Made by a program: the position numbers and the translations under genes. Source: Perna viridis (Eukaryota). Taken from it: a DNA stretch of 64,000 bases. The stretch spans positions 16,409,488-16,473,487 of the forward strand of contig CM074520.1 of assembly GCA_037379345.1 (NCBI GenBank). Reading direction: 5' to 3'. Of the stretch, positions 34,301-41,000 are shown one piece after another. The stretch's first letter is position 1. Each line of letters opens with the position of its first letter. The notes beneath the pieces were generated by a model. It was not told the DNA's origin. It made no database searches and saw nothing but the letters and a program-made list of their open reading frames with translations.

Positions 34301-37300
34301 TTTACTGATTGTCTCAGACCCTGAACCTAGACCTTTTTCTCGCACTATAAAAATTAAAAGGGTTTCAGGTCAGTCACAACCTGGAAAAAAAAATTCTCTG
34401 ATGTTTAGCATTTTTAGACAACCTACAGATAGCAGTTTCTTGATACTAATTCAGATACTTTGTATAAAAGTTCCATATCTCAATTTCAAATTTGCAATAT
34501 ATTTTTGTTTGTGGTTGTTCATTTCAGCCTCAAATGGTACTGAGCCAAGCTACTTAGTATTTCTTCCCAAGCTAAGTAAAGATGTCTGAGGTTATAATAT
34601 GGAATGTCATTTCAGACTGATAGGAAACCACTTCCTGCCTTTTGTCTTTGTTTGTTTTTATTTGTTATGTCTCTTTATCTAAACTTTATCACACTTTTTT
34701 CTGAAACTACTTATGACATCCTCATTACAGGCTGTACATGGCGCCTGGTTTTTACTAGAATACCTATGTATTGGCAGTTTGACCTGTATTTTCTTTTGGT
34801 ACTGGAAAATGCTTTTTCTAAATGCTGAGTATGATAGTTGCCAAAAAACAATCAGAAATTGCATTTAGCTGTTTTCATGTAAATAAGCAAAAATTGAAAA
34901 ACATGTTTCCTCGTTATATTATTTATAGATGTCAGGTTCATCCCAGGTTAAAACTTTGATACTTTGAAGTTCATTTTATATATCTTGGATGAATTAGTAA
35001 GATGATCATCAGTGTTTTGATCTTACACGTTATAATATAATATTCTTATGAAGATTCTGTGATAAGTTGTACTACAAAGTACAACTGAACTGTCCTTAGA
35101 AATTGAAAGTTATGGCAAAGTCTTCCAGATTCACTATTATTATTACTTCTGAATTTTGACATTTCTATCAAGGACCCTTATGTTTTATACCTATCTTCTG
35201 TTACAATCACAATAATCAATTTGGAATCTTGGTCTCATGGGTCAATGATCTTCCAGTTTCATCAACAATGGGTGTAACAGAAAATTATATCAAAAAAATC
35301 TTCATGCTGTATTGCAAACTATGGAGTTTAATGAGTCATTCTTGGTATAATTGGCCATCAAATTTATGGTAATATTTAATTTCAAAATTGTGGTCTTCTA
35401 AAATGATCCCTGCAGATTTGCACTTCAGGCTTTTAACTTTGACAATGCTGGCTTATCCAATGTCAAGATCTAGAGAGACATCCTCATTTACAAGGCAGGC
35501 ACTTGCATGATTCATATTGAAGGAGAAGGAGTAATAATAACGGTGCAAACAAAGGGAAATGTTTGGACAATACAACACAGGAAACTCTAAAAGGAAGAGT
35601 AACTCACCAAGAACAGACCATACAACGGGAAAGACTAAAAAAGTACACACAGAAAACAAACAGTGTGAACCACACTAAAACTGAGGTGAAACTCAGGGGC
35701 TTGGATGGATGAACAGTTCCTGTTTTGTGGGAGACACTCAATTTGCTTTTTGTAGCTCAGTCCAGTGAGGAAAATGGACATCAATGATGGTTCAGGTCTT
35801 ATTGCAGTACAGAAATTGTTAATATATTAGCAGCTTTTGAAACACCAATGCAACTGATTGCAGCTGTAAACCAGCAATACCAAATCTCTTGTATGTGCGA
35901 GGTGAAAGGGAAGTCTTTGATTGATATGTTCTGCACCTGGAGGCATAGGTGGATATATAGTGGAGATGGCAATGTGTATCTGCACAAATAGATAAAGCTA
36001 GAAAAAGTGGTAAAATTTATAGGTATTTTTTAAAACTTCAGGTGTACATGCGAAGTGGTTTTTCTATTTTTTTTTATTGTACATAACACTCAAGATATTT
36101 CTATGATGTATTAAAATTACAAATAATGTAGGAGTCGTCATTAGATTATTATGTAAGAAAAATACATCAAAGTACCAAAATAACTGCTCATTCTTAAAAT
36201 TTGCAGGAATTCAAGATGATGACTATCTCTAGAATTACAAATATTAAGTGCAGAATATTATTTTTAGAACTCTTTGATATGAAGATAGGATTCTTCAATT
36301 ATTGCAACCTTTGCCAATTGTTTGAAGATTTATGATAGCAGATTTTGCTTTCAGTTAAGTTGGAAATGGTGCATGATGGTCATAACTCTACTTCCTGTTT
36401 GGCTTTGGTTCAGTATTTCTGTATTGGAGAATTACTAAACAATACTATTAATGACAACGCCTGTTGATTGTCGTAAGAATTTCTCAGAGATTCTTGGTAA
36501 TAGCAGAGAGTTTCAGTTGTTATGTTTGCATAAGTGATTCTGAATTAGATTTAAGTTTTTTGCCTGTATCTGTTTGGATGAAAGGGTCTTTGGCAGTTCA
36601 AGTTACTTGAGTTTGTATAAATTGTGGGCAGTTGACACTTACTGTAACCATGAAAAGTTCAGATCTTCCATATTGAAAGTGATTTTTAAGTGCTGACCTG
36701 TTTATGATTTGAAAGTGATTTGAAATAAATTACCTGCATAAGAATGGAACTACTTATGTCATATCATTACAAAAGTTCAATGGTATTTCCCTTAGTATTT
36801 AGGGTTTGAAATTAGCAGGGATTCACTCACCAATGGTCCCTAAAATTTGGTGTGGGCTACTACATTTTCTATTGTCATTATAAAGAATTATACATATTGG
36901 CTACCATAATTTTATGTTAAAACCCTTGTATTGACAAATGTTTGTGTAACTGCAGGTATGATAAGGATGTACAATGGAGAAAAAAAACTTCATAAAGAGC
37001 TTGGCACATAGCAGTCCTAGTTTGTGTGGTCCTCTTTCTTTTGTTTCATGAATGTGTATCATTTCTTCAAATGGTATTTTGTAATTGTTGTTATAAATCA
37101 AAATTACACAATTGAACAATGTAAACAAAGGAAATCTGGAGGAACATCCATCAACATTAACCTTATAGGGCTAAAGGTGAACATAGAAGATTGATGCCGT
37201 CTTAGAGAATGTCTCCTAAGTTGTGAACATTGTTTTCAGAAATTTCTATGTATTGCTGGAATGTATCACATAAAATGAGGTCTGTTGTGTAGAATTATTT

Positions 37301-38630
37301 TACTGTCTCTGATAATAAAGTCCTTGCTTTGCCCTTTAAATGTTTTGCATGGAAAAGGGATGGAGGGATTTGGTAATGGTATCTGTCCATTTATAAGGTT
37401 TTGTTTGAGTTTTAAAATCTATGATTGTGGAAGCTGTTGTAAATGATTTATATTGGTACATGTATTCCTAATATTCTGCTGTAAAAATGTACTATTCATG
37501 ACTAATAGGACTAAGAGGTTGATCGTGGTGACAGTAAAGTTTGTTTTCTTCCTGAAAATTGCTTGGTTTGCATATTGGTTATAGACATTTATAAAACTTT
37601 ACCCTATAAAACCTGCATATATATTCTGAAAATGAGACGAACAAATTATACCAATGTACCTATTGCTCCTGACTAATGCAATTACAGAACAGATCTTAGG
37701 TGAAAGAAAGGAATAAATTCCAAATGAAGGATTTATGCAATTTTCATGTTAAAAATACTATTTGATGTAAAAAGGTGTATAACTTAGGATGCTACAAGAT
37801 AAGATTTTACAGAGCTGGAATCACAAATGCTTGCGTGGATAAAGGCATATACAGTTTCTTGTCAAAAGTGATTTTGACAAATCTGGATACATTAGTCATT
37901 ACTATTGAAAATGATACTTTTACTTAAATCCAACATTAAAAAAAGAAAAATGAACATGATCATTCTAATTTGTATTTTTTTTGAAAAGATGAAAAATAGT
38001 TGTGTCCTTTTTTCCCTTGACATGAAATTTATCAATGACAGCTTGTAACGGAAATAGCCCTGTCAACTAACGACATTCTATGTCCCAGGACCAACCTTGT
38101 ACATAGGCTTTGTGTTATAGGTTAAAAGAGGACTTTGTAGTAATATGATTTTAGGGTTTGGTTATATAATCTTCAGTTTTACTGTAATTTTGAGAAGGTA
38201 CTGATATCAGTGGTTTGTATGACTAAGAAAGAATAGGATATCTAATTTGGCTATTTAAAATTTTTTCCCCCTGTAATATCTCAAAATCTAAAATCTATGC
38301 TACCTCTTTAAGAACAGGTGCTCAAGTCAGATGGTAGCTCATTATTTCAAATTAATTGAGAGTAAGCTAGAGGGCAGACATTTGAAGAGCATTTGAATTT
38401 GATAGTTATTGTGCATCCTGAACATAATTTTTTCTATCCAACTCTCTCTTTATTTCTTTGGGTCAGGTTTATGTTGAAGATTTTCATATATGGAGATGGG
38501 ATTCCTATCATCATGAAAGTAGATATTCTCTTTGTCGTATGAATTTCTATAAAATATGAGCTTTTCTATATTACTAATTGGAAAGTGCTAATTAATACAT
38601 TTTTCCAGATCAAAACCTGCCTTTTCATAG

Positions 38631-38806
38631 AAGCATGCTCACCTTGTTGGATAGGAGGGGTTGTGGGATGGATCCTTTGACTAAGTCATACCTTAATTGA
38701 TGAAAAAAATTAGTAGTCATTGCTGCTCCACCATACATGCAACGTATTAGCTATAGGGGCACACTGGTTGACTTGGAGTAGAATTGTGTCTTATTGAGTT
38801 GACATA
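38631..38806 (+). mobile_element. Decayed tRNA-headed V-domain-type SINE remnant
   Basis: AGCATGCTCACCTTG..GTTGTGGGATGGATCC (decayed head and B-box region), then ATTAGTAGTCATTGCTGCTCC...ACTGGTTGACTTGGAGTAGAATTGTGTC, resembling the mollusc V-SINE consensus as I recall it. Confidence 0.5.
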
Positions 38807-38822
38807 TAAAGATAACAGTTAT

Positions 38823-39330
38823 TCCCTGTGCAGGTCCGGGTGTTAAAAGAATAGGCCTGCAGCAGTGCTAAGCTTGTTGTATAAGGCGACTAAATAGTGC
38901 TCAGAAAGCTAGCCAGGGGCTAGGCACTCTGCCCACAGAGCAACTGGGATGTGTGCCCCAGGTGGTGGAATTGGGTACCCCTGGCGTGTTACATGCTGCG
39001 GTTGTCAGGCTATAATACAGAAAACCTGACCGCAACCATAGTGATGCACCGTGTTGGGAAAGATGCCACGTTCCTCGCACGTTAAAGAACCCTGCTGTGG
39101 TATTCGATAGGAGTAGGAACCTTTGTGCTCCGCCACAGGAGGCTAAATTGCCCGACGTTACCCATCCCCCCTTTTTCCAGTGGCAATCAAAATTTGTCAA
39201 CCCTATTATCCTTGTGACCCATCCTTTTCTTTTTCATTTCATGTTCATTTTATCATCCATTTCATGTTCATTGTCTGAATATAGCTGAAATATTGCTGCT
39301 CGGACGTTAAACCCTAACAAACAAACAAAC
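38823..39330 (+). mobile_element. Intact 508-bp SINE-like non-autonomous retroposon
   Basis: Perfect 14-bp TSD AAGATAACAGTTAT (38809-38822 and 39331-39344); (AAAC)n tail after GGACGTTAAACCC; GC- and CpG-rich relative to flanks; Meta-domain-like GCACGTTAAAGAACCC at ~39077-39092. Confidence 0.9.
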
Positions 39331-39388
39331 AAGATAACAGTTATAGTGAATATGTCAAAGAGACAACAGCCTCATCAGGATGAAAATG

Positions 39389-39518
39389 CAGTTTTCACGG
39401 TTAAGGAGTAGTTCAAGGCCCAATGATTGTCAAAATGGAGGTGGGCCTGTAAAATTAACTATTACAGGCCAAAAGTCACTGTATAAAAATTTCTGAAAAA
39501 ATGTATTTGTGAAGACTG
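39389..39518. mobile_element. 130-bp TIR insertion (hAT-like CAG...CTG ends)
   Basis: CAGTTTTCAC ... GTGAAGACTG; interrupts a repeat that is uninterrupted at ~17615. TSD is only imperfect (GAAAATG/GAAATG). Confidence 0.5.
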
Positions 39519-40940
39519 GAAATGTCAGCCCAAGTCTACCTATTGGTCTTCATTGAATGACAAGGAAACCCTCACACCACAAAAAGGCTGCAGCTGGCCC
39601 CAAAACATCATTACACACAGGTACAGGAAAAGAGTTGTCCCTGTACATGTATACTCAAGTAACATAAAAACAAACTAAACGTGAAAAGGAACAAGACTTA
39701 CAGAGTCCCTGGAATCATATGCCTGCTTGTGGGCTATCCGCCTCAGTGAGCTAGCTTGCAATTAAATCTTCTGGCTTAGCATGTCTTACTAACACAAAGC
39801 TAGATATTTCTAAGTGATCAAACATTTTTTCATGAAATATCTGCCATAGAACATCAAACTACAATCAATCATTCAATCAAGTCTTCTTGTAAACTAAAAT
39901 CTAATCTTAACAAGTCTTTCTGTGTTAATATTTTACAATCTTTATTGTTAATTATTCACTATCCACATGCTGTGATTGATTGTGAATGGATATTTGATAG
40001 TAATTATATTAATTTAAAAGAATACATATACTTATGTATTACAGAGATACAAATCTTAATGCTATATCTTTCTACTGAAATAAAATATTTTTGCATTATC
40101 ATTGGTAGCTGTTTATTTTGTGGGAAATGACCACTAAATCAAGATATATAGTGATAAGATAAGTTTATTACTACTTTATGGTCATTTAGGATATAAAACA
40201 ATGATTAACTAGATAATATAGACGTATTAGTGGTTGTTTCAGTCATTAAGCTGTGCTTTTATTGAGATAACTACTGGACACTGTGGGATTCTGGTATTTT
40301 CATAGGTGTTTCACTGGCAATTGAAACAATTTTCATTCATTGAACTATAATGGTGATAGTATTTTGCCACTGAATTAAATTTTTGTCCATTTTGTTTGGT
40401 AATTGCCTTCTTTGTATTTATCAGTCTTTGATTTTGTCTTATTTTGAATGGAAAAATTAATGGAATCAAAAATGATCAAATGAATTCCAATAATGACAAT
40501 GACAAGGAGGAAAGTGACTAGATTCATAGAGTGTACAGCTATCACATCTCTGATTTTTTTTTCAGCAACTGCTTAACATAAAATAACAGCTTTAATACAC
40601 CTTATTATATTAGTTTTTTTAGCAGGCTCTTTAGGTACTTCTGTGAAGTAGGTACAATACTTTCCTGTAAACATTGGTTGAAAACCACAGTTTTTATGAG
40701 AGTGTAGCATCTACCATGTAGAAGTACTAACTGTGCCTGCTCAGAAAATTATCGTAAAAGTATCTGTTGCTACGTTTATAATGCTTCTTTGTTGGACTCT
40801 ATTGTAGAGTTATTTACTCATTAATAAATTTATTACTTTAAGAGTGTCTAGTGACTTGGCAGTTAAATGCAGTGTCTTATTTTTAAGAATTTTCCCCTTT
40901 TTTTCAGAATTTTCTTAAGAGGATGTGAAGTGAAAATGAA

Positions 40941-41000
40941 ATGGACATCCAGGCCACAGATGAATATAAAGCTCTGGAAATCTACCTACGAAAGGCACAG
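40941..41000 (+). CDS. First coding exon of an unidentified large gene (exon 40908-41000; MDIQATDEYKALEIYLRKAQ)
   Basis: Acceptor TTTCCCCTTTTTTTCAG ends at 40907; in-frame upstream TGA; GAAATGG start context; CAG|GTATCT donor in phase 0, joining in frame to 41733. Confidence 0.75.

Follow-up and report, generated by a model that had tools for sequence, protein, structure and literature searches.

LP-SINEs are known from snails, abalone and oysters, and to these are added SINEs of scallops (Matetovici 2016, PMC4758252). In these elements the opening ~70 bp correspond to the 5' ends of Nimb-17_LMi, I-3_DR and RTE-9_CPB, and this head was proposed to be a promoter, a proposal called untested in that paper, which brings in the Pr77 promoter/ribozyme only as a parallel; the word 'pseudoknot' has 0 occurrences in its main text (PMC4758252). 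The head is not treated in the available text of Martelossi 2024, Nishihara 2016 or Kojima 2018. The 5' slot of LINEs is also a site of ribozymes: R2, L1Tc, RTE, baggins and Perere-3 carry HDV-like or twister ribozymes there (PMC6765202, PMC5786205, PMC8501958), and the cleavage site of HDV-like ribozymes is the first base of P1 (PMC4908430). The head and the SINE type were thus known before at the level of sequence; what is new here is a conserved RNA fold and its occurrence in viruses.

The window is the whole stretch of DNA analysed, 64,000 nt of Perna viridis (assembly GCA_037379345.1, contig CM074520.1, positions 16,409,488 to 16,473,487). It holds an element that, judged by its sequence, belongs to the LP-SINE type and adds to the members of that type. 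The parts of the element and its flanks, in window coordinates, are:

38809..38822, + strand: left TSD, 14 bp
38823..39330, + strand: full-length copy of an LP-type SINE, 508 bp; the best family matches are ~96% identical
38823..38901, + strand: structured head, a pseudoknot plus a stem with internal loop and hairpin; covariance model (CM) score 63.9 bits
38825..38840, + strand: stem S1, 38825-28 paired with 38837-40; its 8-nt loop is the S2 5' strand
38841..38853, + strand: linker L3; AGAATA at 38848-53 is conserved, and inserts lie in the 5' part elsewhere
38854..38861, + strand: S2 3' strand of the pseudoknot, partner 38829-36; covaries across families
38865..38900, + strand: stem P3, 38865-70 paired with 38895-900; holds an internal loop and the near-invariant core hairpin 38876-38893
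39001..39035, + strand: short likeness, by eye, to the MESC/Meta central domain
39077..39092, + strand: core word of the Nin/Deu central domain, by comparison with Lottia_Nin and Lsa_Nin
39279..39312, + strand: Nimb-type 3' tail, resembling the Tgra_SINE-7_Meta / T.granosa_0 I/Nimb pair
39316..39330, + strand: (AAAC)n terminal repeat
39331..39344, + strand: right TSD, 14 bp

The element shares with LP-SINEs variable TSDs, a 3' tandem-repeat tail, a partial Nin domain and a LINE-type tail, but the Perna family is longer (508 bp vs ~255) and very abundant. Its head was matched by eye to 16 scallop copies labelled 'Nimb-17 homology' among the LP-SINEs and pectinoid MESC SINEs, and the LINEs were compared via these copies, which keep S1, S2 and P3 with other bases. 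Pan_3 has the head sequence as well.

A preliminary description of this locus had proposed a TSD-bounded, (AAAC)n-tailed retroposon that lacks a tRNA head and whose 5' end folds into a pseudoknot plus hairpin. The 14-bp duplication and the tail at 39316-30 bear out the retroposon, ARAGORN found 0 tRNA genes within 37000-41000, and all of the proposed head pairings (S1, S2, P3 and the hairpin 38876-80/38886-90) are present. Several G-U pairs had been put down to CpG decay. At the three U-G pairs of the window copy (38827, 38866 and 38878), 94, 91 and 102 of 105 family copies, respectively, have C-G, hence the window pairs are CpG-decayed. Of the further pairs drawn in the body, the one at 38999 failed, as it is found in this copy alone, with G opposite G in 90 of the 105 family copies. 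We infer that the element lies in sense orientation in a host intron, from a strand skew in 40 of 49 tiles together with a few candidate + strand exons; none of the candidate + strand exons around the element gave a Pfam match over the cut-off. The tail word at 39304-39312 is reminiscent of the coremin xrRNA motif of plant viruses, a likeness that may be due to chance. By read and contig depth a second repeat of lower copy number lies just downstream at 39390-39690.

The core word of the head occurs at least 10,817 times in the genome (0 for the reversed-word control). A DNA search gave 7,166 candidates, and the 40 that were scored were full length and 96-97% identical. Copies picked by the core word alone had the same start in 30 of 30 cases and, by eye, in 27 of 30 of a further set; the flanks before base 1 were unrelated among the former (30/30), and no tRNA head lay upstream of base 1 in 30 further core-selected copies. 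A tail was present for 82 of 106 heads, and 72 of these 82 copies also had a TSD of at least 7 bp (mode 12). That family 5' ends should stack at a single base was a prediction of the preliminary description, and 47 of the 72 TSD-resolved copies begin exactly at base 1, with nine more starting one base in. Of the 106 heads, 78 have G as base 1 and only 20 have G just before it, which argues that no extra cap-derived G was added at the 5' end. Heads of the family carry changes at 3-6% per copy, and many of them may be dead. Four SINE copies stand head-to-tail at 504-bp spacing (L408-L411, C1 near 9.836 Mb), and at L275 the 3.4 kb surrounding an RNase H match hold seven nested pieces of the SINE, some in each orientation.

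Five families begin with purine-CCCCG, and the sequence upstream is without conservation. In these families base 1 can pair with the pyrimidine that closes S1 (as G-U, A-U or G-C), although by eye three of the five need a one-base bulge. The genomic 5' ends are flush with S1; RNA reads show no pile-up there. The RNA data come from one raw run, of which 19% was read and 6,026 reads were placed, and strandedness was inferred from the ~2:1 ratio of the strands. Depth at 38827 was 102 + 216, and the ~2:1 ratio held from the head into the body. From 38824 (depth 318) 271 reads continue upstream into other flanks, so most element RNA in that library was uncut read-through. In this fraction of the run there was no pile-up of read starts at any place along the element, and no reads fell on the flank of the window copy itself.

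The window head alone folds no better than its shuffles (z 0.11, in folding that excludes pseudoknots), so support for the fold beyond chance comes from covariation across families. Outside relatives were collected by a metagenome scan, which gave at least 122 loci belonging to many families with differing bodies, and a CM search gave 86 matches across 78 loci searched. A free pseudoknot parser run on all matches scored at least 11 for 74 of the 99 own matches and for 39 of the 134 others, and was noisy on decayed copies; anchored tests on representatives were used for this reason. The 25 representatives were hand-picked from 129 unique outside matches plus later additions, leave out decayed and long-L3 copies, and cover SINEs, a LINE and viruses. 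With the register of S2 fixed by the S1 hairpin and an AGAAU anchor, S2 was 77% paired, compared with 57.9 +/- 2.9% for row-permuted strands (0 of 5000 as high; n=25). Partners slid out of register paired to only 37-51%, and the 25 heads had 22 different 5' strands. In a MAFFT alignment of the representatives the covariation score was 0.299 vs 0.139 for shuffles that ignore relatedness (0/500), and changes on both sides were seen in seven of the eight S2 pairs and two of the four S1 pairs, in which two C-G pairs are nearly invariant. The mean pseudoknot score was 12.0 for 29 real heads and 7.1 for 174 shuffles.

The covariation of S2 across families shows that the pseudoknot-plus-hairpin module of the preliminary description is real: the head is an H-type pseudoknot of S1 and S2, its linker carrying the conserved AGAAUA, and after it come a stem, an internal loop and a near-invariant hairpin. 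S1 is 3-6 bp long in the various copies, 0-2 nt separate S2 from the S1 3' strand, and in other families L3 is lengthened by inserts of ~70 to >130 nt while S1 and S2 are retained. P3 aligns poorly (49% of MAFFT alignment cells paired), and pairing in the core hairpin is without covariation support because the core hairpin was the search word and hence is invariant. Sequence 3' of P3 is not conserved. The RNA fold of the head is apparently undescribed, the element itself being of an ordinary SINE type; no paper on the fold was found in the open PubMed Central and bioRxiv text, figures aside.

A LINE sharing the head and tail had also been anticipated. None was found in this genome: the variant-pattern matches that were inspected (30 of 66, and the 100 listed of 315) were SINE copies, and no LINE with a matching tail turned up among 30 loci each for RNase H and RT or among 20 LINE regions. 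The tail of the young Nimb LINE was rejected as a partner of the SINE tail, as 148 of 500 shuffles scored as well. In the locus L321 the head precedes a Nimb-like ORF1: 355 nt separate the module from a downstream 521-aa frame, which gave no Pfam match and by eye resembles ORF1 of the Nimb LINE of this genome, and L321 and that LINE have downstream 5' UTR words in common. The Nimb LINE of this genome encodes an ORF2 with endonuclease, RT and RNase H, and its copies are 99% identical; it starts with a different head that by eye has HDV-like strand order, and Rfam was blank for it. These Nimb heads (L356:1944-2015 and L357:1953-2025, on C15 and C12; ~250 candidates, 99% identical) are a candidate HDV-like ribozyme in their own right.

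Several of the outside loci have features of their own. The animal Nimb-like LINE 5' end of L321 (1980-3946) follows bacterial genes on a gill-symbiont scaffold, either as host contamination or as a real insertion. Soil samples gave SINEs of ~200 bp with the module as head (L318:90-290, L173 and L320), two of them in bacterial MAG contigs and likely contamination. In another SINE family (L169, L183 and L188) a tRNA-like head follows the module in direct fusion, an arrangement shared with scallop MESC SINEs, and in the largest metagenome family (L142 and L176) the module runs into a short basic reading frame.

The viral collection gave nine matches, seven with the whole fold. Six of these seven are small contigs that encode RdRp or RNA-virus capsid domains and represent five lineages; in all six the module is on the sense strand, separated by 7-102 nt from the last stop codon upstream and by 27-119 nt from the end of the contig. 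In one of the six it is in tandem. Two of the contigs, L228 and L221, may be truncated, and thus not all six sites need be true 3' UTRs; the 1217-aa ORF of L221 had no Pfam or PDB match. The seventh is a 212-kb DNA virus contig, in which the module is intergenic, ~130 nt before the ATG of an ORF. The remaining two matches are phage-like contigs with the core hairpin only. Broader viral patterns gave 22 more matches, none with the fold, and two further patterns added nothing; the module was unmatched in the phage collection. A prokaryote scan of 185,579 genomes gave five matches, all of which look like animal DNA in the assemblies.

The preliminary description had held that the strand order is neither that of HDV nor that of hammerhead ribozymes, and comparison of strand orders agrees with the Rfam search in this. 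Rfam searches of the window, 19 loci and the Nimb head returned weak matches to unrelated families, all of them outside the module; with E cut-offs of 10 or 5, the window and the 19 loci gave no match to hammerhead, twister, twister sister, hatchet or hairpin ribozymes. HDV-like ribozymes, which Ruminski reportedly described in RTE and others in 2011, resemble the module in several respects: those of R2, L1Tc/ingi, RTE and baggins occupy the same slot, have a 5' end flush with the first helix and a purine as first base, and tolerate inserts. However, the module lacks P3/L3 nested inside P1, P1.1 and the J4/2 cytosine before P2, and its conserved core is 3' of the pseudoknot. The nested double pseudoknot was rejected, as only the 0-2 nt between S2 and the S1 3' strand are at hand and Rfam gave no match, and fits by eye that treated S2 as an insert in J1/2, or P3 as P2, failed because the P1 partner is absent.

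The pistol ribozyme (PMC4604425) is similar in its short P1 with a loop-formed pseudoknot and in its A-rich linker, and in the module too a G often follows the knot (15 of the 25 representatives). It was rejected, as the module has neither a P2 enclosing the pseudoknot strand nor the conserved GU at the P3-P2 junction and Rfam was blank. The class 3 xrRNAs of Tombusviridae and Solemoviridae are alike in having a single pseudoknot of up to 8-9 bp and a UTR site in tombus-/sobemo-like viruses (PMC11702639). Assignment to that class failed on an S1 of 3-6 bp, the lack of the P1/P2 bulge and L2B, and an 8-9 nt S1 loop fully used by S2. The module further differs from class 3 in its extra conserved hairpin domain, its long L3 inserts and its occurrence in cellular retroposons.

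We consider it probable that the module is an undescribed autonomous element that makes RNA ends, either a new ribozyme class or the first xrRNA of cellular genomes, traded among LINE clades and SINEs from several groups of animals as well as positive-strand RNA viruses and a large DNA virus. Between the two we favor self-cleavage because of the flush and uncapped-looking 5' ends, the indifference to upstream sequence, the invariant loop core, the long inserts and a slot typical of ribozymes. The LP-SINE head would be a ribozyme that belongs to no catalogued class and cleaves itself slowly just before base 1, at the foot of S1, a reading to which we give a probability of roughly 0.45; this figure and the odds that we express for the other functions are judgement and were not computed. 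The potential pairing of base 1 at the foot of S1, which is the geometry of HDV-like ribozymes, argues for the ribozyme, and the slot is supported by the position of the module before the Nimb-like ORF1 in L321 and by the head of HDV-like order that the young Nimb LINE has there. The DNA virus site also counts for a ribozyme, as the module lies ~130 nt before an ORF and an insect DNA virus is reported to carry an HDV-like ribozyme (PMC8256844).

On this ribozyme reading the SINE would be transcribed within host read-through RNA, and the hairpin domain would fold back on the foot of S1 and cleave there. The product would be an uncapped RNA with its 5' end flush with S1 and the knot as a shield; a Nimb-clade LINE protein would then bind the tail and copy the RNA by target-primed reverse transcription. 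The module would have moved in one piece from one LINE clade to another, onto SINEs and into the UTRs of viruses, and in viruses slow cleavage might give rise to a stable 3' subgenomic RNA or release a downstream mRNA. Several observations stand against a ribozyme. Element RNA in the one library is mostly uncut, though many copies, with their 3-6% of changes in the head, may be dead, and the module has no catalytic motif of a known class. The RNA-virus assemblies continue through the 5' boundary of the module, where cleavage would sever the 3' end of the genome. In linear RNA viruses the reported ribozymes lie ahead of ORFs (PMC13725137), whereas in the virus contigs the module follows the last ORF. 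Finally, flank skew, a weak proxy, showed no loss of sense copies (61 of 104 sense-oriented), and no LINE with this head was found among the loci of this genome that were inspected.

The virus sites favor the main alternative, which we regard as unlikely: that the fold is an xrRNA of a new class at which XRN1/XRN2 stalls while trimming host read-through RNA or viral genomes, so setting the 5' end of the retroposon and making viral subgenomic RNAs. In all six RNA-virus contigs the module follows the last stop by 7-102 nt in sense, once in tandem, a 3' position like that of flavivirus and tombus/sobemo xrRNAs (PMC8374639, PMC11702639), and the intact junctions and sense excess of the RNA reads also count for it. 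The 5' fold of R2 has likewise been proposed to protect the template RNA regardless of catalysis (PMC11331408). However, frameshift pseudoknots of the plain type fail to stall Xrn1 (PMC10321173), and L3 inserts of 70 to >130 nt are hard to fit to the tight ring of an xrRNA. There is no single-stranded leader before S1, the features of class 3 are absent and, L228 and L221 being possibly truncated, some of the sites may not be 3' UTRs.

A 3' UTR site in tombus-like viruses is also compatible with a translation enhancer. The fold may bind a protein or the ribosome, as a cap-independent enhancer of this kind or as a handle by which SINE RNA reaches nascent ORF2p, with the 5' end given by an overlapping internal promoter as in the dual Pr77 element. 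The 17-nt invariant core is compatible with recognition by a protein, the junctions are intact in RNA reads, and ribozyme folds have been reported to promote translation (PMC13725137, PMC6765202). We think this improbable, since it leaves unexplained the S1-flush 5' ends of five families and the missing extra G, and the whole fold is kept by non-coding SINEs. A head that acts only as a LINE promoter at the DNA level, with incidental pairing, would suit the 5'-terminal position and the LP-SINE proposal (PMC4758252) but is very improbable given the compensatory changes in S2 and S1 and the presence of the module in viruses with RdRp and capsid genes that lack a DNA stage, and RNA starts without a pile-up at the head and, indirectly, the 5'-end data likewise disfavor it.

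Self-cleaving ribozymes fall into about a dozen known classes (PMC10761166), and cellular xrRNAs were still being sought according to a 2021 review (PMC8374639), so that the self-cleaving ribozyme that we favor, or an xrRNA in its place, would if true add a structural class. It would also account for the precise 5' end of a very large SINE family that lacks a Pol III head, reinterpret the 'LINE promoter' domain and show that a functional RNA has been exchanged between viruses and the retroposons of animals. Retrotransposon-based gene insertion would also benefit from a 5' module able to cleave or protect (PMC11331408). Tandem modules with differing stem sequences were seen at L135:1371-1521 and L221:1-154, at spacings of 74 and ~107 nt, respectively.
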